Below, piece after piece: positions 725-63,289 of a DNA stretch of 64,000 bases (positions are counted from its first letter, which is position 1; every line of letters starts with the position of its first letter). The position numbers and the translations under genes were made by a program. The DNA is from Bulinus truncatus (Eukaryota): assembly GCA_021962125.1 (NCBI GenBank), contig JAGDYQ010000001.1, positions 5,463,061-5,527,060 on the forward strand, written 5' to 3'. Below the pieces are notes generated by a model. It was not told the origin of the DNA. It did no database searches and saw only the letters and a list, made by a program, of their open reading frames with translations.

Positions 725-1192
725 CTGGAATTTAAATATACAGAATCAACTAATCCTTTTACATAAATAATAAAGAACAATTAATGAACCAAAAATATTA
801 TTATCATATATACAAGAAGTGGTCAATAATGATTCAGATTTGGCAAGATTTAGAGAAAAAAAAGGGATGAAATTAATTACAAAAATGTCTTTGTGATTAT
901 ATAAATGTTTTGACAAAAAATCTACAGTTATAATAATTTCTGTGGTTTTAAAATTAAAAAAAAATATTATCATTCAAGTTATTGTAATCTACATTTTTTA
1001 AAATTTAGTTCATCCTTGAGGTTGTTAAAAAGAAGAAAAAATAACTAATATGCTTCTCAATTTGACTCAATTTCATTCATAACATAAAATAATTACATCG
1101 ACCTTTTCAAGACCAATTCAAATTTTAACTATGGACTATGGCTAAGCAATAATTTTTCAGGGAACAGTCAGTAATAAATTAAAAGCTCTTAC

Positions 1193-1415
1193 TTTGAGTG
1201 ACATGGACATTTCAGGGTCTGAATCAAAGACAGTTACAATATTGTGTTTCATTCCCATAGACTGTCTAATGCCTATGTGGTAGAATAATGGTGCTTGCTG
1301 CACAGGTAATGACATGTCCACTACAGCTAGTTCAGCATTATAGAAAGTATCCAAAACAGCTGTTTCTCCAAAATCTAATTTCTGAAAAGCCACCAGTTCT
1401 AAAGTACCATTAACT
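1193..1415 (-). CDS. Middle coding exon of the same unidentified protein: (E)VNGTLELVAFQKLDFGETAVLDTFYNAELAVVDMSLPVQQAPLFYHIGIRQSMGMKHNIVTVFDSDPEMSMSLK.
   Basis: Acceptor CACTAG and donor GTAAGA; 223 nt; phase consistent with both flanking exons; low-complexity-free, globular-looking sequence. Confidence 0.55.
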
Positions 1416-1572
1416 CTAGTGTAAATAGACAAAAAAATAATATTAATAAAATGTGTCATGCATAATATTTAAAAGTTAATTTTCAAATCTTTATAAAGCA
1501 ATGCACTCTACATATATAAATATGTAAATAAATAAGGTTTTACAATTGCTTATTTCTTATGTTGAGACTTAC

Positions 1573-1688: not shown

Positions 1689-3745
1689 GATTTTCTGGAG
1701 TGTTACAATAAAAAGGATGTAAATAAAAATATAATGCATTAAGTATCTGTTTAATGCTAACTCTGTATTAGTTGAAAAAAAAAAAAGTATCTTTCTGAAT
1801 TTCAAGGCTTTTTTTATTTGGTAAAAAAAATACTATTAAGAGCCACTTCATAGAATTTCTAAACCTGAATTATTCACATGCTGGGTGAACAATAAACACT
1901 GGAACCAATGACTTCAACATTGCAAATGCAAAAGCATTAAGAGTCAAAAATAGATCTTTTCAATGAGAAAAATGTGCTGAAAATGATATTACATAAGACT
2001 TTTAGCTCAATCTATATATCATTTAAAGTGTAGTGACCTTTATTTACACTCCTGTCAATCTGAACCCATTTAAAGTGCAGCTGCCCACCTGAAAGAGGAC
2101 TGCCATCACAGTCTTGCAGCTAGAAGACACCAGGCAACTATGATCTCTAACTCAACCAAAAGCATACCCTGCCTTCATTACAAGTGCCTCTGAGCTTCTG
2201 CCTTTGAGCCTCGAAGTTATATTTGGACTCACAAACAACATGCAAAAAAAATTAAAATTCATCACTCTGACACACAAAAGACAACCAAAGATGATAAAAA
2301 GCTATAAAACAATAGAAAAAACTGATTCAATATTTAGCCTAACAAAGATCTGCACTAGGCTTCAAGAGCCCAATTGGACACCATTGTTGATAGAGTTACT
2401 TGTAACCACAGCAGGCTTGAGGATTTAGTGGTAAACACATTTTTCACTTGCCTTTAATTTACTCTAAATAATTTTATTGCGAGTGTGTCTAAAAACATGA
2501 GCAAATGCCATCGCTAGCAAAGGGCATTCAGTTTTTAATAAATTATTATTTGTAATGTGTAGGTAGAAATTTACACATATACGTGAATAAATTGTTATAC
2601 TGTCGACAGGATTCACAACACTAAACAAAGCAATAAAATCATGTACTCCATGAAGATATATGTAACTGACAATAATATAGAGTATATGCCTATTACATAT
2701 TAGTTAGCACTAATTTCTTCTTCCAGTAATTGCTGAGAGTTACTTTTAATATTATTATGTAAATAAATTTTTCATCAAATTTTTTTTTAAAGATTACTTT
2801 ACTTACTGTGGAAAATAAATTGTTTTTTTAGTCAAGAGGTCAACTATTGTCATTAGTGCTTTTGCATTTATTTCTAAGCACTTGAGACTAATTTTATAAC
2901 TAAGTCATTGCAATAAAACTAAAATTGTACTTTAGTCATAGGGAGTTACTCCTAACTTAGATTCCACCAAGCTGACTAAAAATGTTTAAGGTATCAAAGA
3001 GCCACTGAAGTCACAAATTTTTATCAAATGCAAAAAATAGTGAGGAAAACATTATGACTTAACAGGTTCATTGGGGTATGGCTGTAAATCTATTCTGGTA
3101 AATTCTTAAGTTCAGTTGATTTTGTTCAAAATAGCAGAGAAAAGGCAAATGGGTAAAGAAGTGTGAAGGAATTATATCAAAAGAATACATATTACTGACA
3201 AAATGGATGAAGCCGGTGGTACAAGGTTTATGAAAAAACACTAATAAAGGCACTAAATGAAATGTTGCTGAATGAAGTTAATTAGCAGATAATAGTAATT
3301 AATAGGGACCCATAAAGTATTAGTTGTTAGATAAATATAATTATTTTATTTTTAAGCAGGTTATTAAAAAATTTAATTAATTGCTGATATTTCTTTTAAT
3401 TATAACATTTTTAATATTGATTTCTATAAAATTATCACGTATAAGAAAATAGTACAATTTTTATTTAGATTAGGGTGGGATTGTAAATTGGCAAAAAAAA
3501 AAAAAGGAAAAGCCTATTGAAGCTATTCAACAGAAAGAAGGGTTAAGTCACTTAAGTAGACCTGGGTTTAAAACAAGTTTATGTGTATGACATACATTTG
3601 ATTAAACTTACAATACAGCATTTATCATTTCTCTCTGACACCTTAATGGCATAAAAGAATATTTCAATTCTGTGTCATTTATAATTTATTCTGCTATTTC
3701 AGTTAAAATTTAAACATTTTATAACTGTATATAACATTGTTATTA

Positions 3746-4460
3746 CGCACTTGTTACTCGACCCGAACCTCGGGTCGACTACTAGCATATGTACGGTCGA
3801 CCCGGTATTTTTTTTTTCTGTTTCCGGGGATTTTCGCGCAATTGATATCTATAGGTCAGTGCATTGCATAGCCGAGCAATTATACATTAAAATGAGAGGT
3901 TAGTTTGTGTGGCGCGCTAGTAATGTAGGTTGTTCGCTAGGCTGAGACCCAGTTTGGCTAGCTATGTGCGGGTTCGATTCCTGATAGAGACATACATTTT
4001 TTTGTTCAGATTTTATTTTTCAGGATCAGGGTTAGGGATAGGGGGTTAGGGATAGGGTTAGGGTGTGGAGCATTATCTATTGATGATCATTTTTTAATAA
4101 ATCATAATTTTTTTTTTCCAGATTTTTTTTTCAGGATTAGGGTTAGGGATAGGATTAGGGTTAGGATTAGGGATAGGGTTAGGGATAGGATTAGGGTTAG
4201 GGATAGGATTAGGGTTAGGATTAGGGTTAGGATTAGGGTTAGGGATAGGATTAGGGATAGGGTTAGGGATAGGGTTAGGGTGTGGAGCAATATCTATTGA
4301 TGGTCATTTTTTAATAAATCATAATTTTTTTTTTCCAGATTTTTTTTTCAGGATAGATATCAATTGCGCGAAAATCCCCGGAAACAGACAAAATAAAATA
4401 CCGGGTCGACGGTACATATGCTAGTAGTCGACCCGAGGTTCGGGTCGAGTAACAAGTGCC
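3746..4460. mobile_element. Foldback / long-TIR non-autonomous DNA transposon (MULE-like) carrying internal TTAGGG-like arrays.
   Basis: Near-perfect terminal inverted repeats of about 108 bp (3746-3857 and 4350-4460); 9-bp direct duplication TTGTTATTA at 3737-3745 and 4461-4469; internal tandem duplication of a segment containing the telomere-like arrays. Confidence 0.7.
4028..4281. repeat. Interstitial telomere-like arrays (TTAGGG / TTAGGGA / TAGGGA variants) in two blocks, about 4028-4067 and 4136-4281.
   Basis: Direct reading of GGGTTAGGGATAGGGTTAGGG... on the plus strand; each block is followed by the conserved sequence GTGTGGAGCAATATCTATTGATG. Confidence 0.9.
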
Positions 4461-5199
4461 TTGTTATTAACAACAATAAAAATAAAGAGTATTTAATAAA
4501 TACTATATTTTATCTAGAAATGCTAGATGAAGATGTGAGGTTGCTAATGAATACAAATCTATAATTAGGGTACAAGATCACAAAAACGGAACAGGTGCCT
4601 CATATTAAATTATATTTCTATATGACTAGTTCATGTGCTACTCAGCCTACTGGATATACTCTTGATCAATGGGTTTGATGAACTTTAATGTTGATATAAC
4701 ATATTATTAATCCATAATTACAGATGAGCAATCTCTAAAAATGCAAGGTGCAATTTGCATCTGGAAAGGTTACCTGATATTATTGATAAACTGCAAATGC
4801 ATAAAATATAAACATTATAGCTTATTCATCTGTACTAAAAATATGTTTTTGGAAGACGTTTTTCTGTATATACGCCATTGTTCAACTAGTTCCGGTGAAT
4901 TACGTCCCTTGAAGGTCGTGCTCAGATACCAGAACCACAAAATATAGAGCTCAGTGACAAGAGCCCATGGATGCAGAACCAGGCCCAAGTTAATTTGACG
5001 GAAAATTAACGGGCCAAGATTTAACATATTTACCAATTTATATTAGTAGATTATACAGTTTCCCGTTCTACGTGTAATAATAAAAACGCTTGTTTGTAGG
5101 CTTGTGCCAACTAATATTTGTACAGTACTGTAAAATAAATATCTATAACTATGTAACCTTCTGATTAATTTTCATTTAAATATATATAGAGAGAGAGGG

Positions 5200-10183: not shown

Positions 10184-10312
10184 ATGGGTATATTTAAAGG
10201 GCTTCAGATTGCTGTTGATTTTGGTTACACTTTAGGATTTAAGAAAAAATTAGAGCTGCGCAAGAAAATTGTTGAAAACGGAGGTGTTGTAAGCTTCATT
10301 GTAACAAAGAAG
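10184..10312 (+). CDS. PARP4: PARP4-like exon 1: start codon and beginning of the BRCT domain (MGIFKGLQIAVDFGYTLGFKKKLELRKKIVENGGVVSFIVTKK).
   Basis: Kozak-like AAAAGATGG; similar to human PARP4 N-terminus (MVMGIFANC..KKKLQTDIKENGGKFSF); donor GTACAT; TTTTCAG 14 nt upstream of the ATG suggests a further 5'UTR exon. Confidence 0.8.
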
Positions 10313-10490
10313 GTACATTTATATAGTTGCACTCTAAATTGATTTAATTTAGAAAATGAAATATAGTAAACTTATTGTTGAGATAGTTGATAGATTATTT
10401 AAAATCTTAGGATCACTTATTGTGATTTCTGTTAATTGATATATTTATAAATGGTAATGTTTGATTAACTTTTAAAATTCAAACTTGCAG

Positions 10491-10689
10491 TGCCACTTTG
10501 TTGTAACAAGCGATCCGGAAAAATGTCAGGTTTCTTCAAAAAGCAGAATGGCATTGAAATATGGATTGCCTGTGCTAAGACTTGATTACATCTGGGATTG
10601 TTTGCAAGCAGAAAGTCTTTTGCCAAAAGAATCTTACATTGTAGGAGGGAAGAGTAAATTTCTAGATTTCAAGTCTGGTAAAATATCAG
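10491..10689 (+). CDS. PARP4: PARP4-like exon 2: remainder of the BRCT domain (CHFVVTSDPEKCQ...LDYIWDCLQAESLLPKESYIVGG...).
   Basis: Acceptor ACTTGCAG; donor GTAAGA; phase 0 in, 1 out; similar to the human BRCT region (CTHIIL...PDFIWKSI). Confidence 0.8.
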
Positions 10690-10776
10690 GTAAGAAATCT
10701 AAAAGGAAAGTGTCTTAGATTTTTTTTTTCCTTTTTTTTATTTTTATTGACATAAATGATCCTATTTTTTCACTAG

Positions 10777-22111: not shown

Positions 22112-23330
22112 TATTCATTGATGTTGTGTTGAGATGGTGCTTATATTGATTGATCTTGTGTTGAGAAGGTGCTGATATTAATTGATGTTGTGTTGAGATG
22201 GTGCTGATATTGATTGATGTTGTGTTGAGATGGTGCTGATATTGATTGATGTTGTGTTGAAAAGGTGCTGATATTGATTGATGTTGTGTTGAGATGGTGA
22301 GATGGTGCTGATATTCATTGATGTTGTGTTGAGAAGGTGCTTATATTAATTGATGTTGTGTTGAGATGGTGCTGATATTGATTGATGTTGTGTTGAGATG
22401 GTGCTGATATTCATTGATGTTGTGTTGAGATGGTGCTGATATTCATTGATGTTGTGTTGAGATGGTGCTGATATTCATTGATATTGTGTTGAGAAGGTGC
22501 TTATATTAATTGATGTTGTGTTGAGAAGGTGCTGATATTGATTGATGTTGTGTTGAGATGGTGCTGATATTCATTGATGTTGTGTTGAGATGGTGCTGAT
22601 ATTCATTGATGTTGTGTTGAGAAGGTGCTCATATTAATTGATGTTGTGTTGAGAAGGTGCTGATATTGATTGATGTTGTGTTGAGATGGTGCTGATATTC
22701 ATTGATGTTGTGTTGAGATGGTGCTGATATTCATTGATGTTGTGTTGAGATGGTGCTTATATTAATTGATGTTGTGTTGAGAAGGTGCTGATATTGATTG
22801 ATGTTGTGTTGAGATGGTGCTGATATTCATTGATGTTGTGTTGAAAAGGTGCTGATATTGATTGATGTTGTGTTGAGATGGTGCTGATATTCATTGATGT
22901 TGTGTTGAGAAGGTGCTTATATTAATTGATGTTGTGTTGAGATGGTGCTGATATTGATTGATGTTGTGTTGAGATGGTGCTGATATTCATTGATGTTGTG
23001 TTGAGATGGTGCTGATATTCATTGATGTTGTGTTGTGATGGTGCTGATATTCATTGATATTGTGTTGAGAAGGTGCTGATATTGATTGATGTTGTGTTGA
23101 GATGGTGCTGATATTCATTGATGTTGTGTTGAGATGGTGCTGATATTCATTGATGTTGTGTTGAGATGGTGCTTATATTAATTGATGTTGTGTTGAGAAG
23201 GTGCTGATATTGATTGATGTTGTGTTGAGATGGTGCTGATATTCATTGATGTTGTGTTGAAAAGGTGCTGATATTCATTGATGTTGTGTTGAGATGGTGC
23301 TGATATTCATTGATGTTGTGTTGAGATGGG
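22112..23330. repeat. Minisatellite, 32-bp unit (GTGCTGATATTCATTGATGTTGTGTTGAGATG), about 38 copies, in intron 20.
   Basis: Period measured between successive GAGATGG occurrences. Confidence 0.95.
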
Positions 23331-23671
23331 GATTATATCTATTATATCTTGAGGATTTTTCATTTTCATGTATTAAGTTCAGTCTTTATTCTCATAAGGA
23401 CTTAGTCGTGTCATTATTTTGGAACTCAAATGGGATACGACAACTACATTCAGAGACAATGAGTGGACCTAATGGTCCAGTGATGTACAGCAGAATTTTT
23501 TAAAATATCTGTCCAGTTGGCTTAGTGCAATATTATATAGCTAGGATAGCAGTCAGATTATACAATTCTACTGTTTAAAATATCTACGATTTACTTTTGT
23601 TGAATTTAAATACTGGTAAATAAACTACAACAAAAAAAAAAAAAAAACAATAATAGAAAACAAAAACACTT

Positions 23672-23790
23672 AACATAATGTTTGATGATTGTAACTCAAT
23701 GATGTTTGATGATTGTAACTCAATGATGTATGATGATTGTAACTCAGTGATGTTTGATGATTGTAACTCAATGTTATTTGATGATTGTAA
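23672..23790. repeat. Minisatellite, 24-bp unit x ~5 (CAATGATGTTTGATGATTGTAACT).
   Basis: Direct reading. Confidence 0.9.
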
Positions 23791-23851
23791 CTGAAATCAC
23801 TGAAATGTATAAATTTCCTGAAATGGTTACATTTTTTGTTGGTTTTCTCAG

Positions 23852-23951
23852 TGACACTTGTAATAGTTATGTTCTGAAAGCTCTGGCTCGTGTGTCTGGA
23901 GGAACTTTTGAGTTCTTTAATAACAAGGCCAAGTCCAAGTGGGAAACAAAG
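23852..23951 (+). CDS. PARP4: PARP4-like exon 21, vWA (SDTCNSYVLKALARVSGGTFEFFNNKAKSKWETK).
   Basis: Acceptor TTTTCTCAG; donor GTAAAA; matches human STANRHVLRILSQCGAGVFEYFNAKSKHSWRKQ. Confidence 0.9.
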
Positions 23952-24317
23952 GTAAAAGTTTTTATCATCTAAACAAAAAATTTCTGTAATTAACCTTATA
24001 CAGACCATCTGGGTCAGATGGAGCAGGGTTCGGATGTTTCTGTAGCCACTGCGAACTATGAAAATGTGGCTAGTAAATGCCCATGCACCTTTATTTTCTC
24101 TAACAAATGTTTGGAACCTAAAAGTTCTGGCACTCACCTGGGCCCAAACCTGGGCCACCTCGTTCCATGTGTTATATTAACAAAGTTAAAAATCTTTTTA
24201 TGTTAGTTGAGGGGAAAAGATAATAAAGTCCATGACTTTTTTTGTGTGTTAAGCCTAAGAAAATTTTTTTAAAACATGTTTCTTGAACTTAAATGAAAAA
24301 AAAAAAAAATATGTCAG

Positions 24318-24488
24318 GTGAAACATCAACTGGACAAAGCCAGTCAACCAGGGTTAACTTCTGTGTCGGTAGAGTGGTGCCAGTATGATGACCACCTACG
24401 CCCACCTGTGCAGGCCCCAAAACAGATCACTGCTATGTTCAATGGATCTCGACAGGTCATCTATGGCTTTGTGCCTAACTGTACAATG
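24318..24488 (+). CDS. PARP4: PARP4-like exon 22 (VKHQLDKASQPGLTSVSVEWCQYDDHLRPPVQAPKQITAMFNGSRQVIYGFVPNCTM).
   Basis: Acceptor ATGTCAG; donor GTGAGG; matches human CHSVSVKWQQLNPDAPEALQAPAQVPSLFRNDRLLVYGFIPHCTQ. Confidence 0.9.
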
Positions 24489-24499
24489 GTGAGGATACA

Positions 24500-24750
24500 A
24501 GTTAAACAATGTAAATATGTCGAATGAACAAGTTAGACAATGTAAATATGTTGAATGAACAAGTAAAACAATGTAAATATGTTGAATGAACAAGTTATAC
24601 AATGTAAATATGTTGAATGAACAAGTTAAACAATGTAAATATGTTGAATGAACAAGTTAAACAATGTAAATATGTTGAATGGACAAGTTAAACAATGTAA
24701 ATATGTTGAATGAACAAGTTAAACAATGTAAATATGTTGAATGAACTGCA
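24500..24750. repeat. Minisatellite, 31-bp unit x ~8 (GAATGAACAAGTTAAACAATGTAAATATGTT).
   Basis: Direct reading. Confidence 0.9.
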
Positions 24751-24800
24751 AAAAATATATTTCATCGAATGAAATAATTTTTTATTATATTTAAATTAAG

Positions 24801-24881
24801 GCAACTCTCTCAGCTAGTATCAGTGGGCAGCAGGTTTCTACAGTTGTCTCCACTTCAGAGCTCTCCATTACTGAAGGCTAT
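24801..24881 (+). CDS. PARP4: PARP4-like exon 23 (ATLSASISGQQVSTVVSTSELSITEGY).
   Basis: Acceptor AATTAAG; donor GTAAGA; matches human ATLCALIQEKEFCTMVSTTELQKTTGTM. Confidence 0.8.
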
Positions 24882-25024
24882 GTAAGATGTTTACTTTATT
24901 ACACACGTTTTTAAAAATTTATTTTAAAATCTAAAAAGAACCAAGTGTATGATGTTACATAAGAAAATTAATTTCCTTGAGCCACAATAAATACTTTTAA
25001 TTTCCTCTGCTAACCTGGGTTTAG

Positions 25025-25105
25025 CTTGTCCATCGTTTGACAGCAAGAGCTGTGATAAGAGACTGGGAAGATGGAGTCTTATCTTCAGACAGAACAGGCC
25101 ATGAG
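25025..25105 (+). CDS. PARP4: PARP4-like exon 24 (LVHRLTARAVIRDWEDGVLSSDRTGHE).
   Basis: Acceptor GGGTTTAG; donor GTTCGT; matches human IHKLAARALIRDYEDGILHENETSHE. Confidence 0.9.
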
Positions 25106-25386
25106 GTTCGTGCATCAACATTATTACATGTTGTTATATGGATTATTACTTTAATGTTGGAGAAAAGCTTACTGCAATCCTTTTTACTTTAAAATATTTT
25201 TTTTTGTTTTGTATCTTTAATATCTTTAGATACTGTATACAAGCACAATAATTGCTACGTTTATTCACTATTATATCACAAGCAAAAGCTTCTTTTTTCA
25301 CTTCAGTATTTTTTATATTTTTTATAGGCTTGTGATAATGTTTACACTTATGCTGGTTTTATGTACTGTAATTTTTTTTTTTACAG

Positions 25387-25488
25387 ATGGCAAAGATGGA
25401 TTTAAAAAATTACATTATAGAGTTGAGTAAACAGTATTCTATAGTCACTCAGTTCACCAGCTTCATTGCAGTAGAAAAACGAGAAGAG
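25387..25488 (+). CDS. PARP4: PARP4-like exon 25 (MAKMDLKNYIIELSKQYSIVTQFTSFIAVEKREE), ending at a GC donor (GCAAGT).
   Basis: Acceptor TTTTTTTTTACAG; matches human MKKQTLKSLIIKLSKENSLITQFTSFVAVEKRDE; only a GC-AG intron keeps the frame and the human alignment into the next exon. Confidence 0.85.
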
Positions 25489-25611
25489 GCAAGTTGCTGA
25501 AATCATTTCCAAATATAGAAATATGTCTGGCTAAGATAATGACCTTTATGGTCATTTGCAAAAGGGTTTACAAAAATAAATGTAAAATCTCTATACACAA
25601 GGACCATAGTG

Positions 25612-26455
25612 GTATTTAAACACCTGTAACATAGCATACCAAGGTCATGCATGGCAAACACCTGTTAAATGTAACATAGCATACCAAGGTCATGCATGGC
25701 AAACACCTGTTAAATGTAACATAGCATACCAAGGTCATGCATGGCAAACACCTGTTAAATGTAACATAGCATACAAAGGTCATGCGTGGCAAACACCGGT
25801 TAAATGTAACAGCATACAAAGGTCATGCGTGGCAAACACCGGTTAAATGTAACATAGCATACAAAGGTCATGCATGGCAAACACCTGTTAAATGTAACAT
25901 AGCATACCAAGGTCATGCATGGCAAACACCTGTTAAATGTAACATAGCATACCAAGGTCATGCATGGCAAACACCTGTTAAATGTAACATAGCATACAAA
26001 GGTCATGCATGGCTAACATCTGTTAAATTAACATAGCATACAAAGGTCATGCATGGCAAACACCGGTTAAATGTAACATAGCATACAAAGGTCATGCATG
26101 GCAAACACTGGTTAAATGTAACATAGCATACAAAGGTCATGCATGGCAAACACTGGTTAAATGTAACATAGTATACAAAGGTCATGCATGGCAAACACCT
26201 TTAAATGTAACATAGCATACCAAGGTCGTGCGTGGCAAACACCTGTTAAATGTAACATAGCATACAAAGGTCATGTGTGGCAAACATCTGTTAAATTAAC
26301 ATAGCATACAAAGATCATGCGTGGCCAACACCTGTTAAATATAACATAGCATACAAAAGTCATGCATGGCTAACATCTGTTAAATTAACATAGCATACAA
26401 AGGTCATGCATGGCAAACACTTGTTAAATGTAGCATAGCATACAAAGGTCATGCA
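25612..26455. repeat. Minisatellite, 45-bp unit x ~19 (TAAATGTAACATAGCATACCAAGGTCATGCATGGCAAACACCTGT), in intron 25.
   Basis: Direct reading; multiple-of-3 period produces spurious ORFs on both strands. Confidence 0.95.
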
Positions 26456-26679
26456 TGGAAAACATATGCCCTGCCTGCTTTATTTTCCCTCAGCTATTAT
26501 TAGGTCTTATTAAGAGCAGGATGTAGGATCGCAAAAAAAATAATTCCTTGCATTCACTGAGATTTGTACTCCTTGCTGACATTACCACCCTGCACCTCCC
26601 CACAGTCATTATTAAAGATGTTCTAAATAACTGGAAATGATAGTGGCATTTATTATTTTACTTAGTTTATTACTTTTTA

Positions 26680-28240
26680 ACTTTGAGACGACCTTTTTTA
26701 ACTTTCCTTTTTTAACTTTGAGACAACCTTTTTTAATTTTAGAGACAACCTTTTTTAACTTTGAGACAACCTTTTTTAACTTTCCTTTTTTAACTTTGAT
26801 ACAACCTTTTTTTAACTTTAGAGACAACCTTTTTTAACTTTCCTTTTTTAACTTTGAGACAACCTTTTTTAACTTTCCTTTTTTAACTTTGATACAACCT
26901 TTTTTAACTTTGATACAACCTTTTTTAACTTTAGAGACAACCTTTTTTAACTTTAGAGACAACCTTTTTTAACTTTAGAGACAACCTTTTTTAACTTTAG
27001 AGACAACCTTTTTTAACTTTCCTTTTTTAACTTTGAGACAACCTTTTTTAACTTTCCTTTTTTAACTTTGATACAACCTTTTTTAACTTTGATACAACCT
27101 TTTTTAACTTTAGAGACAACCTTTTTTAACTTTAGAGACAACCTTTTTTAACTTTAGAGACAACCTTTTTTAACTTTAGAGACAACCTTTTTTAACTTTC
27201 CTTTTTTAACTTTAATACAACCTTTTTTAACTTTAGAGACAACCTTTTTTAACTTTCCTTTTTTAACTTTAGAGACAACCTTTTTTAACTTTCCTTTTTT
27301 AACTTTGATACAACCTTTTTTAACTTTAGATACAACCTTTTTTAACTTTAGAGACATTTTTTAACTTTAGAGACAACCCTTTTTAACTTTAGAGACAACC
27401 TTTTTTAACTTTGATACAACCTTTTTTAACTTTAGAGACAACCTTTTTTAACTTTAGAGACAACCTTTTTTAACTTTAGAGACAACCTTTTTTAACTTTA
27501 GAGACAACCTTTTTTAACTTTAGAGACAACCTTTTTTAACTTTAGAGACAACCTTTTTTAACTTTCCTTTTTTAACTTTAGAGACAACCTTTTTTAACTT
27601 TAGAGACAACCTTTTTTAACTTTAGAGACAACCTTTTTTAACTTTAGAGACAACCTTTTTTAACTTTAGAGACAATATTTTTTAATTTTAGAGACAACCT
27701 TTTTTAACTTTAGAGACAACCTTTTTTAACTTTAGAGACAACCTTTTTTAACTTTAGAGACAACCTTTTTTAACTTTGATACAACCTTTTTTAACTTTAG
27801 ATACAACCTTTTTTAACTTTAGATACAACCTTTTTTAACTTTAGAGACAACCTTTTTTAACTTTCCTTTTTTAACTTTAGAGACAACCTTTTTTAACTTT
27901 AGAGACAACCTTTTTTAACTTTAGAGACAACCTTTTTTAACTTTAGAGACAACCTTTTTTAACTTTAGAGACAACCTTTTTTAACTTTGATACAACCTTT
28001 TTTAACTTTAGATACAACCTTTTTTAACTTTAGATACAACCTTTTTTAACTTTAGAGACAACCTTTTTTAACTTTAGAGACAACCTTTTTTAACTTTAGA
28101 GACAACCTTTTTTAACTTTCCTTTTTTAACTTTAGAGACAACCTTTTTTAACTTTAGAGACAACCTTTTTTAACTTTAGAGACAACCTTTTTTAACTTAA
28201 GAGACAACCTTTTTTAACTTTAGAGAGACAACCTTTTTTT
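26680..28240. repeat. Minisatellite, 22-bp unit x ~70 (TTTAGAGACAACCTTTTTTAAC plus GATACAACC and TTCCTTTTTT variants), in intron 25.
   Basis: Direct reading. Confidence 0.95.
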
Positions 28241-29763: not shown

Positions 29764-31098
29764 TCTGTTAAATTAACAGAACGCTGTGGCTTCGAATACG
29801 ACCGGCCGTGCTACGTATTTTTTTTTTTCGAGACACGACCTACAAACTTTGATGATGTCAGTAAACAGAATGAACTCTTATGATTTAAAGTTATTTTCTT
29901 TTCGCGGGAACGAGTAATTTTGTCTACTTATACATTAAAATTGTATCTGCTTGTGTGTCCTCCTGGCACAATGGTTAAACCATTTGGTTTGTGACTCATT
30001 TTTATGCTGACTATATCCAGGTTCGATTCCTCTCAGAAACATAACTTTTTTTATTGTGTTTTTTTTCAGAATGTATCCTTTTAATTGTTTTAATGAAAAA
30101 TAACTAATTAGATCTCTTTGACTTTTTTAAAAAATTGAAGTAATGTTTCCTTAAGGATGTTGTAAGAAAAAGAAACAACAACTAATTGGTTTTTTTTTAA
30201 CTATTTCATAACTTAAAAAAAAAAATATTTTGAAAATATGTATCAAAGCTGAACACAGAGGCGTAACAAGGAAGGGTGGGGGGGGGGGGGTCCAAAATCG
30301 AAAGTCCCGCCGGGCTCCAGCTTGAGGGGAGCCCCCAAAATTATTTTTACATTAAATATTAAGTACATAATCTCATGTCATGGTATCGAATGTCAAAATG
30401 CAAGGCCCCCAAATCCTAGGTTCGGCAATGGCTTTACAGGGTACAGCTAGTCCTAAATATTACCTAACTTTTCCTTACCATCATTTTGCGTCACACTTTA
30501 AAAAATTCAGAGTAGCCTACATATTTCAAATTTACTAAATAATAATAAGATTAAGAAAAGAAAATAGAGGGGATGGGGAAGCATTTATATCCGAGAATTG
30601 AACCAAATACTGACGGAGACGAATTAACGAGTGTTAGCTTTCTGGGGGGGGGGGAGGGGGAGGGGTACGATAGATACTAATTTAGCGCATAATTTTTTGT
30701 TTTATTCGTCCGACTTTATTAGGCTTGGGCAGACCCGAAAAAAAAGTAATAAAGAATAACTGCCGTGCATGTGCACATCTTTACTCTTAGTCTTAGACAT
30801 ATATCCTGACAACTAAAATATATAATTCAAAGCTGTATTTATTTAAAAAAAAATATTATAAAAATATCTCCGATTATTAACAGCAAATGACTTTATTAGG
30901 CTTGGACAGACCCGAAAAAAAATTAATGCCAAATATAAAAATATCTCCGATTATTAACAGCAAATGACGTCATCAACGTCTGCAGTAAATAAGAGTTCTC
31001 ATTCATTCTGTTTACTGACGTTATCAAAGTTTGCTGGTCGTGTCTCGAAAAAAAAAATACGTAGCACGGCCGGTCGTATTCAAAGCCACTGTTAACAG
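29764..31098. mobile_element. Second foldback / long-TIR non-autonomous DNA element (about 1.33 kb) in the intron after PARP4-like exon 29.
   Basis: Inverted terminal arms of about 130 bp (29764-29895 vs 30965-31098); internal duplicated segment (GACTTTATTAGGCTTGG.CAGACCCGAAAAAAA x2); internal Pol III B-box-like GGTTCGATTCC; TSD not resolved. Confidence 0.6.
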
Positions 31099-31564
31099 AA
31101 ATATTATAAATAAAGGACGGTTTGACATTGTGTTAGAGGCCATGACTGTGCACCTGAATATCTTGGTGACTTCTGGAATTTTACTTGTGTCTCAACATCA
31201 TCTCATTGTATTAGTTGTGTAAAGTGAATAGTAGATATATATAAATAGTTACATTGTCATCACAAATTGTAATCACGGAGCCTTGATGGAAGCCTTAAAG
31301 TTGTTCATAGAAGATAGTTCTTGGTAAATAATGTAGCTTTGTCATAAAAAATAGTTCATGATAAATAATAAAGCTTTGTCACAGAAGATAGTTCATGTTG
31401 AATAATCTAGCTTTGTCCATCATTCAGTTATGTAAAAATTTATTTGCTTAATTTTTTGGTATTAGCTTAACTACCTCTAAATGAGTTCTGTAAAAATGAG
31501 TTATTCTAAAAACTTGATTGAGATGTGTGCAAATGTGTAATTTTGATATTCAAAATATGAACAG

Positions 31565-31818: not shown

Positions 31819-32112
31819 TAATAGTTGGGCGTAAACATCTATGATTTTGCATCATTATTTGTTGCACAGTGCCCATTTTCGATTTTTTTTTTACTGCTGT
31901 GCATCATCAAATACTGGACTGAAACTCTGATGATGTCAGACATTATAGTATTTTCACATCTTAAAAATGCACGCTGGCCAAGTTGGACTAGTGATATCAC
32001 TGCCCATTACAAACTAATGTTTATTCTCACCTTATAATATCAAGCCAAAAAAAACAAAAAAATTAATTGGTAATTATTATAAACTAGTAGTTCAACCTGT
32101 TCTATGCTATTT

Positions 32113-32480
32113 TGGTAGGCATCATAGAGTGTTTGATTTAAACAGTTCTTATGCCCTTTTGGTAGGCATCAGAGAGTGTTTGATTTAAACAGTTCTTATG
32201 CCCTTTTGGTAGGCATCAGAGAGTGTTTGATTTAAACAGTTCTTATGCCCTTTTGGTAGGCATCAGAGAGTGTTTGATTTAAACAGTTCTTATGCCCTTT
32301 TGGTAGGCATCAGAGAGTGTTTGATTTAAACAGTTCTTATGCCCTTTTGGTAGGCATCAGAGAGTGTTTGATTTAAACAGTTCTTATGCCCTTTTGGTAG
32401 GCATCAGAGAGTGTTTGATTTAAACAGTTCTTATGCCCTTTTGGTAGGCATCAGAGAGTGTTTGATTTAAACAGTTCTTT
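32113..32480. repeat. Minisatellite, 47-bp unit x ~7.5.
   Basis: Direct reading (CAGTTCTTATGCCCTTTTGGTAGGCATCAGAGAGTGTTTGATTTAAA). Confidence 0.9.
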
Positions 32481-33434
32481 TGTTGTTTACAACTTTTAAT
32501 TTCAGGTCACCCAAAATAAGTTAAAAAAAAAATGCCAAGTTTATAAAATGTAACACCTATTAAGAAACAGTTCATGGATCTTAGTAAATTTATAGGAAGA
32601 TGTTTTTTGGTCTGCTTGTAACCTGATTTCACTGTTTGTCATATTTGCATAGAAGGCCTTATATTAAACATTAAATATTGCTGCTAGAGATTATGTGTAA
32701 CAAAATATATACATGTACCTTCTATTGCATGAATACAAATTGTCATTTCTGTTTGAACTCTCACTTTATCTGTGAGCTGCTTAGTCTCTTTAAGCCAGTG
32801 TCATTTAGAAATATCCAATTTTAGTTACAGTAACATCCAAATAAATATTTTGGCTGTGTGAAACATGACCAAACTAAGTCAACTTTTATTTTTTTCACAG
32901 CAGCCCTGAAAAAAATACTTCACAAAGTTTAGATAATTTAAACACATGAATACTATTCTCTCACTGATAAACTGTCCAAACTTGACTTAGCCTCTTTAGT
33001 TTATGTCCTCCATTACTGTCCATATATATAAACTAATGTATCTGAGCTATACTGTCCATATGCCATTTTTATAAACCAATGTATTTGGTCTTTACTGTCC
33101 ATAGTCCATTCTATAAACTATTGTATCTGATCTTTACTGTCCATAGTCCATTGTTATCAACCAATGTATCTGAGCTATAATGCTCTCCTTTTTTTAATGG
33201 CCAGGTTTGGTGACATTGTGGGATTTATTCTGTGGACCACTAAAAATTATAGTCACATAAATCAATACATCATTTTCTTTTTACGTAGATAGATATGTCA
33301 ACCAGAGGAGCTAAGTCAGTAACTTTGAGACCCCTTCATTGTTTAGTCCTTTAAACATTTGGACATTGAAATATAGGAAAACAATCATGAATAGAAATAG
33401 TATACTTTATATTTTTAAAGTCAAAAGGTCTTCT

Positions 33435-33725
33435 GGCTAATGTGACTTAATCTTAGTAGGTTAGTTGGCATATCTAACTGGCTAATGTGACTTAATCTTA
33501 GTAGGTTAGTTGGCATATCTAACTGGCTAATGTGACTTAATCTTAGTAGGTTAGTCGGCATATCTAACTGGCTAATGTCACTTAATCTTAGTAGGTTAGT
33601 TGGCATATCTAACTGGCTAATGTCACTTAATCTTAGTAGGTTAGTTGGCATATCTAACTGGCTAATGTCACTTAATCTTAGTAGGTTAGTTGGCATTTCT
33701 AACTGGCTAATGTCACTTAATCTTA
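33435..33725. repeat. Minisatellite, 45-bp unit x ~6.5.
   Basis: Direct reading (GGCTAATGTGACTTAATCTTAGTAGGTTAGTTGGCATATCTAACT). Confidence 0.9.
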
Positions 33726-34034
33726 GTAGGTTAAAACCTCATACTTGCTCTTTTTTTATTGTCCTAAATAAAATAGTTAATTTATATTAATAACAGTTTT
33801 TTTTTGTGTGTAATATCTTCAGTTGGTATAGGCAGTGTTGTGTTCATTCAGTAAAGAGAGTGTTGTGTTTATTGAGTATAGAAAGTGTTGTGTTCATTTC
33901 ATATAGGCACTGTTGTTTTTAGTTTGTGAACTGTTGTGTTTTTTTGCTTGTTTAAGGATTTCATTTCAGTTAGTAGACATAACTTTTATAATTAAGCAAC
34001 CATTGTACAAAAAATTATTGTAACTTAATACATT

Positions 34035-34955
34035 GTCTTTGGTAAAAGTACATCTTGGGTAATAACCACACAGTCTGATGGCATGTCTTAGGTAATAGCC
34101 ACACAATCTGATAGCATGTCTTGGGTAATAGCCTCACAGTCTGATAGCATGTCTTGGGTAATAGCCACACAGTCTGATAGCATGTCTTGGGTAATAGCCT
34201 CACAGTCTGATAGCATGTCTTGGGTAATAGCCACACAGTCTGATAGCATGTCTTGGGTAATAGCCACACAGTCTGATAGCATGTCTTGGGTAATAGCCAC
34301 ACAGTCTGATAGCATATCTTGGGTAATAGCCACACAGTCTGATAGCATGTCTTGGGTAATAACCACACAGTCTGATAGCATGTCTTGGGTAATAGCCACA
34401 CAGTCTGATAGCATGTCTTGGGTAATAGCCTCACAGTCTGATAGCATGTCTTGGGTAATAGCCACACAATCTGATAGCATGTCTTGGGTAATAGCCTCAC
34501 AGTCTGATAGCATGTCTTGGGTAATAGCCACACAGTCTGATAGCATGTCTTGGGTAATAGCCACACAGTCTGATAGCATGTCTTGGGTAATAGCCTCACA
34601 GTCTGATAGCATGTCTTGGGTAATAGCCACACAGTCTGATAGCATGTCTTGGGTAATAGCCACACAGTCTGATAGCATGTCTTGGGTAATAACCACACAG
34701 TCTGATAGCATGTCTTGGGTAATAGCCACACAGTCTGATAGCATGTCTTGGGTAAAAGCCTCACAGTCTGATAGCATGTCTTGGGTAATAGCCTCACAGT
34801 CTGATAGCATGTCTTGGGTAATAGCCACACAGTCTGATAGCATGTCTTGGGTAATAGCCACACAGTCTGATAGCATGTCTTGGGTAATAGCCACACAGTC
34901 TGATAGCATGTCTTGGGTAATAGCCACACAGTCTGATAGCATATCTTGGATAATA
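34035..34955. repeat. Minisatellite, 33-bp unit x ~28 (GTCTTGGGTAATAGCCACACAGTCTGATAGCAT).
   Basis: Direct reading; generates 280-300 aa ORFs in three frames on both strands. Confidence 0.95.
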
Positions 34956-35016
34956 AATATATGAGCTCTGCTTTATCTCATGGCTCTTTACTTTCAATTT
35001 TTTTGTGTGACTCAAG

Positions 35017-35085
35017 ATGTGTGGATCGAAGATTCAATGAGAAGAAGTGGCAAAGTAGCTGAGGTAGCTTGGGATACCTGTCTAG
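35017..35085 (+). CDS. PARP4: Candidate PARP4-like mini-exon A ((D)VWIEDSMRRSGKVAEVAWDTCL).
   Basis: Acceptor CTCAAG; donor GTAAAT; phase 1 in and out, compatible with exon 29 and exon B; no human homology visible. Confidence 0.35.
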
Positions 35086-35561
35086 GTAAATAATTTTATC
35101 CTATTAGTTTAGAGTTTAATTTCCTGAAGCTGGCAATGCTGAAAACAGCATATGAGATATTTTATTTTGTTAAACATTCATATCTTTAGAGATTTGTTGT
35201 TTCTAGTTGTGTATTTAATAAAATGAGCTTGTTGTTATTGTCCTGATTATGGGTGGAAGGAGGGGGAGGGGTGTGCAGCAAAACTCTTAACAGTGACCCA
35301 CACTTTTGGGGTCCCATCAGGTACAGTAAGATGCTATAATGTAAATGAAATCTTTTGGTTTTTGTTGTTTTTTTTTTGTTTACAGAAGATACTGACTAAA
35401 TTATTCTATTAGAAAATTTTTTTAAATCAAGATATCAAACAAAATGTTTTTAGTGAAGATCATGAGACAACAATGTATCCATGGCCACGCAATATTGCCT
35501 CCATACTATTGTGCAAGTGTGTGCAAAACAGCCTCTATGCGGTGGCTAAATCTTCCCTTTA

Positions 35562-35565
<4 letters not shown>

Positions 35566-35659
<94 letters not shown>

Positions 35660-35665
35660 ATAACT
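35566..35665. repeat. AT dinucleotide-rich microsatellite (ATATATATGTATATATAAAT)n.
   Basis: Direct reading. Confidence 0.9.
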
Positions 35666-35939
35666 TTTAAGTTTTCAATTCTAAATTCATGTCAATCTAT
35701 AAGTCTTTTTTTAAATTTCTGGTGCCATCTATTTATATAACATCAAATATTCATGAACTTAATTGTTCATTGAAAGAAATCTTAACGATAGTTTTTCGAC
35801 AGAAAGAAAAATGTTTTATAAATGAAATGTGTACTAAGCAAAACACAGCAAGTAAATTTCAAAGTTATATAACAGACAAATGAAGTTTTATAATCATCTG
35901 GTGACGCTTTGGTTGTGAGCCGGATTTACTTGGTGTAGT

Positions 35940-36290
35940 CCGATCAGCATGCAGCGGGTTACAGGGTTGCATCAGCATGCAGCAGCTTACATCAGCATGC
36001 AGTGGGTTACATCAGCATGCAGAGGGTTACAGCAGCGTGCAGCGGGTTACATCAGCATGCAGTGGGTTACGATCAGCATGCAGCGGGTTATGATCAGCGG
36101 TTACGATCAGCATGCAGCAGGTAATGATCAGCATGCAGCGGGTTACGATCAGCATGCAGCGGGTTACAACAGCATGCAGTGGGTTACGATCAGCATGCAG
36201 TGGGTTGCGATCAGCATGCAGTGGGTTGCGATCAGCATGCAGTGGGTTACGATCAGCATGCAGTGGGTTAGTGTTTTCAGGATAAGACAA
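35940..36290. repeat. Minisatellite, 21-bp unit x ~16 (GATCAGCATGCAGTGGGTTAC).
   Basis: Direct reading. Confidence 0.9.
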
Positions 36291-40733: not shown

Positions 40734-42452
40734 TTAATTATTCATGTACACATATGGTCTAAAAAATTTAAATTTACTTCTAAAGCATTTGGCTCTTCTA
40801 TTGAAACATTTATCCAGCAACATATCTGCATCACGACATCTTGCACCATTCACATGCTGTCTTTCATCATCATAATTTCTGTTGTTATGATATATTGTTC
40901 TGTAGTTATCTGGTTTCCTGCCAAAGCGCTTGTATCTGTGCTCATTCTGATTCACTTCTCTATGATGTCTGTAGTCATGCATCATCTTTCCATTGTGATC
41001 TATTCTTCTCTTGGTTATGTACGGATCTATCCTTCTCTTAGTCATGAACTCTTTGCATTGTTTCTCAATGTGACCTCTCTTGCAACACCTGTAACAAACA
41101 ATGTTCATTCTTCTTGACCTACAATCCTTGTATCTGTGTCCTATATGTCGACAATATTTGCAAAAAATTACTTCTGGTTGAGTTGTTTTATTTTTATGTG
41201 AGAACTTTCTTGAATGATTCATCTCTTCTCTCCTTCTTGAGTCGTTAACATTTGTTCTCACTGCAGATTTGAGATTTGACCTTGTTCTACGGTCATTGAT
41301 ATTTGATCTTGTTCTAGATTCATTGACATTTGGTCTTGTTCTAGATTCATTGATATTTGGTCTTGTTCTAGATTCATAGACATCTCCTGTCCAACCTTTT
41401 TTATTATCCTTTTGATTTCTAGTTTTTTTAAACAACGAAACGACTTGTTCAACTTTGTTTTTAGTTAGATATTTGGTATTTTTACACTGTGTTTCTACCA
41501 ACATTGTACCAACGATATGTTCTGGACTAACGTTGTCATTAGGATCAGTTTGAGTATGTTTATTGTCTCTATCATTACTTGTCTGACTGGTATGCATTAC
41601 TTTCTCTTTTATACATGTGATCTCACATCCTATTGTATTTAATTTCTCTTCTACTACTGAGATAACTTCATTGTTTATTTTGTGCTCATTAGCATATGTT
41701 AGCTTAGTCTTGTGTTGTTTACTTTTCAAATCGCTTATGTCAGCCTGCATACTTCCGAGTTTCGTTTCCACTTCGTCAATTTTGTTAATGATTAATTCTA
41801 TTTTGATGTTTAATTTGAGAAGTTTATCCATTATATTCTGATATTGTACAGCAGTAGTTTCACCATCTACGTTTTCTGTTTGTGTACATTTCTGTATAGT
41901 ATCTACTCCAATTTCTTTTAAAATAAATTCTGCTAGTTTTCCATATTGTAAACCAATTAGTCGTCCTTTTAAACAAGCTACATCCCAAGAATCTAATTTA
42001 TGTTCATCACATTCAAGTTCTCGAGCTCTTTTACTTTTATAGAAATATCTGCACAGTTTCAACTGGACTTGGCAATATGTAAGATCATCATAGTTAGGTA
42101 TAGTGAGTAGAGCTTCTTTTGCTTCACATTCACAAGATTCAAATAGTTGAGTTGTCCATTTACTACGTTGTATATTATTAAGATCACAAAATCCTTCAAA
42201 ATCTATAAAATATTCATCAATGTCAAATGTTCTTCCATCAAATTTGTTAATGCCCGATATAGTTCCTGAATATCTAGTTTTGTGTAATTCATAATATTTT
42301 TCTCTTTCCTTCATAAAGTGTGACAGTTCTCTTCCTTTCAGACGTAGCATATCAGCATACCATAACCATCTTTCAGTACTATCTTCCAAAGATTCAATAT
42401 ATGCCATTTTATATATTCTGTTTTTCAGTAATTTCAAGTGTGTAGCAATCAA
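40734..42452 (-). CDS. Gag-like protein, 572 aa, with coiled-coil region, basic SRTRPN repeats and two CCHC zinc knuckles (CKYCRHIGHRYKDC, CYRCCKRGHIEKQC).
   Basis: Intact ORF between the LTRs; two CX2CX4HX4C motifs typical of retroelement nucleocapsid. Confidence 0.8.
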   Translation of the reverse strand: MIATHLKLLKNRIYKMAYIESLEDSTERWLWYADMLRLKGRELSHFMKEREKYYELHKTRYSGTISGINKFDGRTFDIDEYFIDFEGFCDLNNIQRSKWTTQLFESCECEAKEALLTIPNYDDLTYCQVQLKLCRYFYKSKRARELECDEHKLDSWDVACLKGRLIGLQYGKLAEFILKEIGVDTIQKCTQTENVDGETTAVQYQNIMDKLLKLNIKIELIINKIDEVETKLGSMQADISDLKSKQHKTKLTYANEHKINNEVISVVEEKLNTIGCEITCIKEKVMHTSQTSNDRDNKHTQTDPNDNVSPEHIVGTMLVETQCKNTKYLTKNKVEQVVSLFKKTRNQKDNKKGWTGDVYESRTRPNINESRTRPNVNESRTRSNINDRRTRSNLKSAVRTNVNDSRRREEMNHSRKFSHKNKTTQPEVIFCKYCRHIGHRYKDCRSRRMNIVCYRCCKRGHIEKQCKEFMTKRRIDPYITKRRIDHNGKMMHDYRHHREVNQNEHRYKRFGRKPDNYRTIYHNNRNYDDERQHVNGARCRDADMLLDKCFNRRAKCFRSKFKFFRPYVYMNN

Positions 42453-43647: not shown

Positions 43648-44389
43648 GCCTCCATGCATCATAATGAACAAAATGGAATTAGAATGAGTGTAGAAAAATG
43701 TACTCAGTTCATCAGAAAACAGGACTGGATGGGATATTTCCTTACCATTCTGAAATATTTCATGGACCTTCCCATCATGCTGGGATGGTTGATGCAAAAC
43801 TAATACAGTCACTAATAACTTCTGAACTAATCTGTCTTTTCCCTTTAAGATTAAGTTTTAAATACTTTCTTTATTTTTACTCAAGGTAGCGCTAATATGA
43901 GAGCCACAAAATTGATAAGAGAAGATACAAGAGAGGAGGATTTGGACATAGGTATTGTATTTAATCTAATTTGTGTAGAGTTTAATGTTTCATTACTGAA
44001 TTAATGATTACATGATCTCTTTAACTGCCAAATCAATAGCGGGAGTTCAGGGACATTACAGCCAACTGATCTCTCATTTTCAGTCTATGCTAAGGGCAGT
44101 GATAACAAGTCTGGTATAGTTTCATCTGTACATTTGTTTTTTGAAGCCAGCTTTTGTGTATGTGACCTCTCTGATAAGTGCCATCATGTCTAAGTATAGA
44201 GTGCTGTGACACACCAATTCAGAGATACCAGATATGGTTTTTAAGGACCCGACACCAGATGGCTGACCTTAATTCAAACATCGAATAAAGTGCCATCTTG
44301 GTTGGGCCAGTTCACTGAAATCACAAACTCTTAGAAACCAACCATGCAGCTAATTTTACATGGTATGGTAGAGATGTGGAGCATTGGCC

Positions 44390-45890
44390 AGTTCAAAGTA
44401 CCAGAGTGTTTACATTGGCGCAGTTCTAAGTATCAGTGTTTACATTGGCGCAGTTCAAAGTACCAGAGTGTTTACATTGGCGCAGTTCTAAGTATCAGTG
44501 TTTACATTGGTTCAGTTCTAAGTATCAGTGTTTACATTGGTGCAGTTCTAAGTATCAGTGTTTACATTGGCGCAGTTCAAAGTATCAGTGTTTACATTGG
44601 TGCAGTTCTAAGTATCAGTGTTTACATTGGTGCAGTTCTAAGTACCAGAGTGTTTACATTGGTGCAGTTCTAAGTATCAGTGTTTACATTGGTGCAGTTC
44701 TAAGTACCAGAGTGTTTACATTGGTGCAGTTCTAAGTATCAGTGTTTACATTGGTGCAGTTCTAAGTACCAGAGTGTTTACATTGGTGCAGTTCTAAGTA
44801 TCAGTGTTTACATTGGTGCAGTTCTAAGTACCAGAGTGTTTACATTGGTGCAGTTCTAAGTATCAGTGTTTACATTGGTGCAGTTCTAAGTATCAGTGTT
44901 TACATTGGTGCAGTTCTAAGTACCAGAGTGTTTACATTGGTGCAGTTCTAAGCATCAGTGTTTACATTGGCGCAGTTCTAAGTATCAGTGTTTACATTGG
45001 TGCAGTTCTAAGTACCAGAGTGTTTACATTGGTACAGTTCTAAGTATCAGTGTTTACATTGGTGCAGTTCTAAGTATCAGTGTTTACATTGGTGCAGTTC
45101 TAAGTATCAGTGTTTACATTGGTGCAGTTCTAAGTATCAGTGTTTACATTGGTGCAGTTCAAAGTATCAGTGTTTACATTGGTGCAGTTCTAAGTATCAG
45201 AGTGTTTACATTGGTGCAGTTCTAAGTATCAGAGTGTTTACATTGGTGCAGTTCAAAGTACCAGAGTGTTTACATTGGTGCAGTTCAAAGTATCAGTGTT
45301 TACATTGGTGCAGTTCTAAGTATCAGTGTTTACATTGGCACAGTTCAAAGTACCAGAGTGTTTACATTGGCACAGTTCAAAGTATCAGAGTGTTTACATT
45401 GGTGCAGTTCTAAGTATCAGAGTGTTTACATTGGTGCAGTTCAAAGTACCAGAGTGTTTACATTGGTGCAGTTCTAAGTATCAGTGTTTACATTGGTGCA
45501 GTTCTAAGTATCAGTGTTTACATTGGTGCAGTTCTAAGTATCAGTGCTTACATTGGTGCAGTTCTAAGTATCAGGGTTTACATTGGTGCAGTTCTAAGTA
45601 CCAGAGTGTTTACATTGGTGCAGTTCTAAGTATCAGTGTTTACATTGGTGCAGTTCTAAGTACCAGAGTGTTTACATTGGTGCAGTTCTAAGTATCAGTG
45701 TTTACATTGGTGCAGTTTTAAGTATCAGTGTTTACATTGGTGCAGTTCTAAGTACCAGTGTTTACATTGGCGCAGTTCTAAGTATCAGTGTTTACAATGG
45801 TGCAGTTCTAAGTACCAGTGTTTACATTGGCGCAGTTCTAAGTATCAGAGTGTTTACATTGGTGCAGTTCTAAGTATCAGTGTCCTATTT
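44390..45890. repeat. Minisatellite, 30-bp unit (AGTGTTTACATTGGTGCAGTTCTAAGTATC) with 36-bp CCAGAG-insert variant, about 45 copies. Short blocks of the same repeat occur at 38520-38690 and 39660-39740.
   Basis: Direct reading. Confidence 0.95.
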
Positions 45891-50085: not shown

Positions 50086-50762
50086 GTAATTATTAATACA
50101 TAATTCATAAAACATAATTATTAATAAATGTACAGTCCAGTTACCTAACCCTATCTTAGCCATCAGATAAAATAACTGAGAGATAAATCAATATAACAAA
50201 AGAAATCTTTATTTAACAAAAAAAACAGCTAATTCTTATAGATTTGATGCTGCTAAAAACCAAAATTTTCTATGATAGTTTAAATTTCTAATCCTTTATG
50301 GTCCTAACAATTAAATCAAAATAAATCATGTCAGTGCATTTACAAAAATTTAGGGAAACTTTGTAAAAAAAAAAGTAAAATAAAAACAATGAAATAAAGT
50401 ATTTTTTCACCTTATATAGGCAAGTGTAGCACTATTCATCCTTATACATTTTACCTTACCCATTGGTGACTAGGTTTCCCAGTTTACTTTTGGGACGCGT
50501 CCCAGTTTAGCATCACACATCTTAGTATCCTGGAATGCTCAGGGATAATCATAGAATATTATGTAAATATCCCAGCCCATTCCATATTCTGAGGAATTGT
50601 GTACATTTTCCTACACCCATTCTGATTCAAAATGATACGTTTTGCCCATTACAAATTTTTTTTAATGTTGAATTTCATAATTCGATTGTGCTTAAAAAAA
50701 TAGTTTTATTTTTAACTCGAAGTTTCAACACTTTAATGATTTAGTACTGTAACCAGTTTTAC

Positions 50763-60590: not shown

Positions 60591-60974
60591 TGTCCCGTAG
60601 CACCTCTACCGGTGTGTCACTCACAAACCCAGGGTAAAAAGACAACTGATGGCCCGTTCCAAGTACAGACATCATATGATTGGGCCCTTTTTGTGTGTTA
60701 TCGCTCATGTTTCTTGTCTGATGTACACATTTACTGGGACTATTTCATCTCGACTTGTGGACAATTGTTAGAGAAATGCTTCCAACCGTTGCTCGAAAAA
60801 CATGTACTACTGCTGTTCGCACCCTTTTTTTTTTTTAGTTCTGAGCGAAATGTCTGTTCTTTCCAAATACATGGCAGGGATTTGTCATGGTGATCCTTAT
60901 ACACATTCCTATGATTCTTAGATGTATTCATTTGATTCTTGGAATTTATCAACGACTCTGATCAAGACGAGGCA

Positions 60975-61275: not shown

Positions 61276-61299
61276 GGCTCGTCTGTGTTTGGGTATCCG

Positions 61300-63240: not shown

Positions 63241-63289
63241 AGCTCTGTACAATCTAAACATCTTCATCAGGTTTATACAAAGTATACTT

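Follow-up and report, generated by a model that had tools for sequence, protein, structure and literature searches.

The 715-bp unit at positions 3746-4460 (E1), which has the extent given to it in the preliminary description, is probably a MITE-sized, non-autonomous transposon of class II (cut-and-paste), most likely Mutator-like, carrying a telomere-like microsatellite that is specific to its lineage or to this one copy. This reading rests on long inverted arms, an exact duplication of the flanking sequence, a lack of coding capacity and the reiteration of short motifs within the arms. It is strengthened by a second element (E2) in the same window, that is, in the whole 64-kb stretch of DNA that was analysed, since E2 is an independent relative with a 9-bp duplication of its own. 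The positions of the features of both elements, and of the nearest exons, are given in Table 1.

Table 1. Features of E1, E2 and the neighbouring exons, with positions counted from the first letter of the window
Feature	Position	Strand	Description
MAP3K5/ASK-like N-terminal exon	1157-1459	-	DRHyd-ASK and TRAF-binding; PDB 8qgy, E 6e-20
Left TSD of E1	3737-3745		TTGTTATTA, exact 9-mer, second copy at 4461-4469
Left TIR of E1	3746-3852	+	TCGACCCG three times, short hairpin at 3755-3781, T10 run
Module common with E2	3853-4025	+	blastn and local alignment to E2
Telomere-like array 1 (short)	4026-4063	+	TCAGGG TTAGGG ATAGGG GG TTAGGG ATAGGG TTAGGG
Tail 1 and T-rich prefix	4064-4137	+	GTGTGGAGCATTATCTATTGATGATCATTTTTTAATAAATCATAA and T10CCAGAT9CAGGAT; 98% identical to 4281-4354
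Telomere-like array 2 (long)	4133-4282	+	25 hexamers, no indels, 12/18-nt higher-order periodicity
Tail 2 and T-rich prefix	4281-4354	+	second copy of the tandem unit
Right TIR of E1	4353-4460	-	inverted match to left TIR
Right TSD of E1	4461-4469		TTGTTATTA, exact 9-mer
Two exon fragments with BRCT domains, from a gene in divergent orientation	10184-10718	+	BRCT-like
E2 with its TSD	29773-31100	+	element at 29782-31091, 1310 bp

In a gapped alignment the arms of E1 pair between 3747-3852 and 4353-4459 (106 and 107 nt, respectively), and they differ by three mismatches and a 1-nt indel inside the T-run, which leaves them about 96-97% matched. Inverted arms are thus present as the preliminary description had reported, although not the perfect ones of about 108 bp that it gave: identity is complete over the outer 49 nt only, and a single unpaired C is found at each extremity (3746 and 4460). 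The 9-bp flanking duplication that it had also reported is exact. The probability of such a flanking match arising by chance is about 1e-4, as estimated from random junction pairs in the window with an offset of at most 1 nt, after masking of the tandem-repeat regions, since minisatellites otherwise inflate the rate. Furthermore, the motif TCGACCCG has six sites in 64 kb, where 0.07 would be expected, and all six lie within the arms of E1, three per arm. The arms take up 213 of the 715 bp (30%), no tandem repeat was detected in either of them by TRF, and a single strand of the element folds as a long hairpin, with a DNA MFE of -136.5 kcal/mol compared with -45 +/- 4 for shuffled sequences (z = -22.5). 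The CpG observed to expected ratio is 1.9 in the arms and 0.36 across the window; this CpG richness in a CpG-depleted genome, together with the divergence of about 3% between the arms, suggests that the insertion is young.

No ORF longer than 62 aa was found in E1, and the one that reaches this length is a translation of the array. The translated ORF of the TIR had no relatives in a database of 5.8 billion proteins, and no transposase or autonomous partner was seen in the window. TIRs, a duplication abutting them, and a small size without the capacity to code for a transposase are among the features by which class II elements and MITEs are recognised, and they bear out the earlier view of E1 as a non-autonomous DNA transposon. 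A structure of this kind might also originate as a one-off local palindrome, an inverted duplication left by replication or repair and flanked by a coincidental 9-mer, which was the case that the preliminary description had put forward as its own refutation. Such an origin would agree with the E1 TIR having no second copy in the 64-kb window; its exact pattern likewise gave no matches in viral contigs, JGI metagenomes or GTDB genomes, collections that hold no snail genomes and have no bearing on copy number. We consider it extremely improbable, because the exact duplication abuts the arms, with the chance of about 1e-4 given above, because the arm motifs are reiterated, and because E2 has a like architecture, its own 9-bp duplication and an internal module in common with E1.

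E2 is flanked by an exact 9-mer, TTAACAGAA, at 29773-29781 and 31092-31100 (chance about 6e-4), and its arms of about 90 nt (29786-29874 and 31002-31089) are split by an indel in the T10 run. When E1 was compared with the window by blastn, positions 3880-4026 matched 29928-30072 with 65% identity over 150 nt (E 2e-9), and the local alignment of this module scored 87, against 29 +/- 4.4 for shuffled sequences. No further relatives of E1 or E2 beyond this module were detected by blastn in the rest of the window, and a degenerate pattern of the module had no matches in metagenomes and viral contigs, which again are collections without snail genomes. The module adjoins the left arm in both elements and has the same orientation relative to the CGC terminus with which both left ends start. 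Other resemblances lie in the arms: GTATTTTTTTTTTC occurs in those of both elements; ACGACC is found twice per arm in E2, its core CGACC being common to the arms of E1 and E2, so that the four arms contain 11 of the 32 CGACC sites of the window; and the arms of E2 are as CpG-rich as those of E1 (observed to expected about 1.9). Two observations weigh against the main reading: the extreme terminal bases are unpaired in both elements, C and C in E1, CGCT and CA in E2, and the arms of E1 and E2 are only weakly alike, so that, strictly speaking, the two elements do not make up a single family. The module of about 150 nt would descend from an ancestor common to both. The interior of E2 also has long G-runs at 30275-30290 and 30645-30665, and internal direct repeats, GACTTTATTAGGCTTGG.CAGACCCGAAAAAAAA, present twice.

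Mutator-like elements (MULEs) are known by TIRs of more than 100 bp, TSDs of 8-10 bp and repeats in their subterminal regions, and the interiors of their non-autonomous derivatives are heterogeneous; the same is true of MULEs in animals (PMC5225508; PMC3310237). The duplication is 9 bp long in both E1 and E2, within the 8-10 bp, typically 9, of MULEs (PMC5225508), and the 106-nt arms of E1 carry TCGACCCG three times each. Because these are the published hallmarks, MULE is ranked first for E1 as the most likely superfamily on structural grounds, with Merlin, hAT and P as the alternatives, and the Mutator-like fit proposed in the preliminary description is upheld. That E1 is a non-autonomous transposon of one of these other superfamilies, which also make 8-9-bp duplications, appears unlikely. 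The right terminus of E2 reads CAGTG as its reverse complement, which is hAT-like, hAT termini being YARNG, and the right terminus of E1 begins with GG, as many Merlin ends do. The duplication could also be taken for one of 8 bp with an adjoining A that matches, but the ninth base matches in both E1 and E2, so that 9 bp is favoured, a length that fits Merlin too. MULEs, in contrast, have as their hallmark arms like these, about 90-106 nt long and with subterminal motifs that recur, the TIRs of hAT and Merlin elements being usually much shorter.

The cargo of E1 is non-coding and is formed by the module of about 150 nt and then by 2.x tandem units, in each of which a T-rich prefix leads into a hexamer array that a 43-nt tail closes. 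The module region opens with TTATACATTAAAAT and a degenerate stretch resembling a tRNA; the B-box-like GGTTCGATTCC comes next (3971-3981), and behind it are a 15-nt spacer, a T7 run (3997-4003) and a T-rich stretch ending in CAGGAT. The tandem duplication joins 4043-4137 with 4260-4354, 95 nt that are 98% identical and consist of 21 nt of array end and 74 nt of tail and prefix; the two tandem copies recognised earlier are therefore real, while the tail of 80 bp ascribed to each is replaced by a tail plus prefix of 74 nt. A polypyrimidine-CAG precedes each array and a GT follows it. Exonisation was considered for this arrangement and set aside, the neighbouring gene being on the opposite strand and supporting evidence being absent.

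The B-box motif that had been noticed in E1 is real and is kept in E2: GGTTCGATTCC is exact in both, and these are its only two sites in 64 kb, compared with 0.26 expected. In both elements the T7 run comes 15 nt past the B box, and the box consensus, its spacing and a T run behind it are as in tRNA genes. E2 has, furthermore, an A-box-like TGGCACAATGG 55 nt upstream of GGTTCGATTCC, whereas in E1 this box is degenerate. These features could be read as those of a functional Pol III unit, either a tRNA-like gene or a tRNA-derived SINE head carried by the transposon. We find it very improbable, given that ARAGORN detected no tRNA in the modules of E1 and E2, that the Rfam tRNA model matched neither module in 200-nt searches at the gathering threshold or at E<=10, other hits being at chance level, and that the acceptor and T stems were unpaired on inspection. 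A tRNA gene or tRNA-derived SINE head was consequently rejected, no cloverleaf being detected by the tRNA models, and the motif of the preliminary description is retained without its tRNA reading. We take the motif to be a putative remnant, tRNA- or SINE-like, that both elements inherited in decayed form and to which no function is ascribed.

The telomere-like arrays are a strictly 6-nt periodic mixture of TTAGGG, TTAGGA and ATAGGG. They exist as previously noted, but the TTAGGGA and TAGGGA units that had been listed beside TTAGGG are a phase artefact, there being no mix of 6-mers and 7-mers. The units of array 2 are AGGGTT (equivalent to TTAGGG) nine times, AGGATT eight times, AGGGAT seven times and AGGGTG once, so canonical units amount to 9 of 25 (36%), with a longest pure run of two units; perfect TTAGGGTTAGGG, that is (TTAGGG)2, occurs three times only. 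TRF assigned periods of 12 and 18 to the array. The arrays of the two tandem copies differ about fourfold in length (38 and 150 nt) although their flanks are 98% identical, and the array departs from canonical at about 11% of positions, compared with about 3% between the arms and 2% between the duplicated tails. Two recurrent variants arranged in 12/18-nt blocks, the absence of indels and the fourfold difference in length argue for slippage or unequal exchange of variant blocks and not for the decay of a pure telomerase tract. To judge from one copy of E1, and a single copy does not separate slippage from capture of telomeric DNA, the arrays look like a slippage-expanded variant microsatellite and not like a fresh telomerase product.

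At the homologous junction E2 reads CAGAAT followed directly by GTATCC, with no telomere-like array, where E1 reads CAGGAT, array, GTGTGG, and the array would have arisen in the E1 lineage after its split from E2. The origins of interstitial telomeric sequences (ITS) discussed in the literature include telomeric capture, the birth of a microsatellite followed by slippage, and carriage by transposable elements (PMC9693754; PMC6410037). It is conceivable, if somewhat unlikely, that the array is genuine telomeric DNA, either added by telomerase or captured in double-strand break repair inside the element (for example, in gap repair after excision), which later degenerated, and that members of the family thus seed ITS. 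In favour of this, a microsatellite seed is absent from the corresponding position of E2, so that the array resembles an insertion in the E1 lineage; a single substitution separates its unit from the telomere repeat of gastropods; and both telomerase-mediated break repair and carriage by transposable elements have been proposed for ITS (PMC9693754; PMC6410037). Canonical units make up a minority of the array, however, and the presence of just two recurrent variants in higher-order blocks indicates amplified variant units and not a decayed pure array; the distance of the array from canonical exceeds the divergence of arms and duplicated tails, and this one copy does not by itself show carriage.

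A broader proposal would have the E1 family as a whole carrying telomere-like, G-run-rich arrays, which telomerase would first have synthesised in a transposon undergoing breakage or excision, with transposition seeding interstitial telomeric or G-quadruplex-prone sites across the planorbid snail genome. We regard this as quite improbable. The spread of telomeric arrays by mobile DNA, which the preliminary description had envisaged, receives no support from the window, where E2, the sole relative seen, lacks an array at the corresponding position and no second copy of the TIR occurs. The telomere motif of the host had also been read from the arrays, and a degenerate internal array cannot establish it; TTAGGG is consistent with a gastropod host, and support for this motif comes from taxonomy and not from the array. 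TTAGGG telomeres together with interstitial TTAGGG arrays have been reported in a heterobranch slug (PMC12506671).

We infer that E1 is mobilised in trans. The transposase, most likely a DDE enzyme of the Mutator-like kind, would be the product of a gene outside the element; it would bind the termini and the reiterated subterminal motifs TCGACCCG of the arms, and would excise E1 and re-insert it at a 9-bp staggered cut, whose repair would generate the TTGTTATTA duplication. Within the element, the array would have grown in blocks of 12 and 18 nt, through slippage or unequal exchange, from 38 nt in one tandem copy to 150 nt in the other.

As to the genomic context, the GC content of the window ranges from 28 to 46%, with an average of about 33% over 2-kb segments. 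An ORF of 476 aa at 48673-50103 (plus strand) is 81% identical to the hypothetical protein Btru_000398 of the planorbid snail Bulinus truncatus (E 6e-213), and by this match the host is a gastropod, near to that species rather than the species itself; the same ORF contains FG-nucleoporin-like proline-rich repeats (PPPPSSGLFGSVPPP). A distance of about 2.3 kb separates E1 from the MAP3K5/ASK-like exon, to whose 5' side it lies, in an intron or in upstream DNA. Unrelated minisatellites form an exceptionally dense series at 22112-28239, 32099-36270, 44382-45883, 50757-54397 and 60030-63252; their units measure 21-57 nt and are repeated as many as 66 times (as is the 57-mer at 50757-54397), and they cause strong local excursions of GC skew. 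Another ORF, of 572 aa at 40734-42452 (minus strand), gave no match in Pfam; it carries, close to the C-terminus, motifs that resemble cysteine/histidine knuckles of CCHC type, and may code for a gag-like retroelement protein.

Together, this evidence indicates that E1 is best filed as an ordinary kind of mobile element, unnamed as far as checked, with a mildly interesting telomere-like cargo whose family-wide carriage is unsupported. Non-autonomous MULEs with varied cargo are commonplace, and good descriptions exist of molluscan MITEs whose interior combines tandem repeats with a microsatellite. As it stands, E1 is one more MITE with an internal microsatellite, of use mainly for repeat libraries, and it recommends caution with TTAGGG-like hits inside assemblies, which may be cargo of transposable elements and not relics of chromosome fusion. 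Were the family to be multicopy and routinely array-bearing, it would provide a sequence-resolved case of interstitial telomere-like repeats borne by a DNA transposon in a mollusc, the spread of ITS by DNA transposons being a route often proposed and rarely documented, and it would be of relevance to the genome annotation of schistosome-vector snails.

Among known systems, Foldback (FB) elements resemble E1 in their long inverted arms and strong hairpin potential, but the arms of E1 have no tandem subrepeats by TRF and form a minority of the element, so the foldback label of the preliminary description is a loose one. A better foldback candidate in the window is the structure at 61298-62056, where about nine copies of the 16-mer CGGACAAAACCCCCAG face about seven of its complement, TGGGGGTTTTGTCCGC, across an AT-rich spacer of about 500 nt; it appears to be inserted in a 49-bp minisatellite that continues on both sides. 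Non-autonomous MULEs such as the Muta1-derived elements of Aedes aegypti (PMC5225508) share with E1 TIRs of more than 100 bp in which short motifs recur, a TSD of 8-9 bp that shows no obvious preference for particular targets, a terminal motif that is imperfect, and an interior that is non-coding and heterogeneous. E1 differs from them in its host, a snail, in that no MURA-type autonomous partner was seen, and in its arm motifs, which are dispersed, inverted 8-mers and not regular tandem subterminal repeats of 9-15 bp.

Among molluscs, bivalves have MITEs that contain tandem repeats together with a microsatellite, namely DTC84 of Donax trunculus and the pearl-related elements of Crassostrea (PMC3879986). 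Their internal layout, with central core repeats and a microsatellite, is analogous to that of E1, but their inverted repeats are short and their target duplication is a putative AA (PMC3879986), whereas E1 has 106-nt arms, a 9-bp TSD and a telomere-like microsatellite. Assignment of E1 to the pearl/DTC84 type was rejected on the length of its arms and of its TSD. Finally, the arrays of E1 share with the short or degenerate ITS associated with transposable elements a head-to-tail TTAGGG-type organization, a non-terminal position and a location in repetitive DNA (PMC9693754; PMC6410037). Compared with these ITS, and with the host motif taken from the gastropod affiliation, the array of E1 is hexameric with canonical units in the proportion and pure runs given above, is ordered in a higher-order structure, and lies wholly inside one TIR-bounded element.
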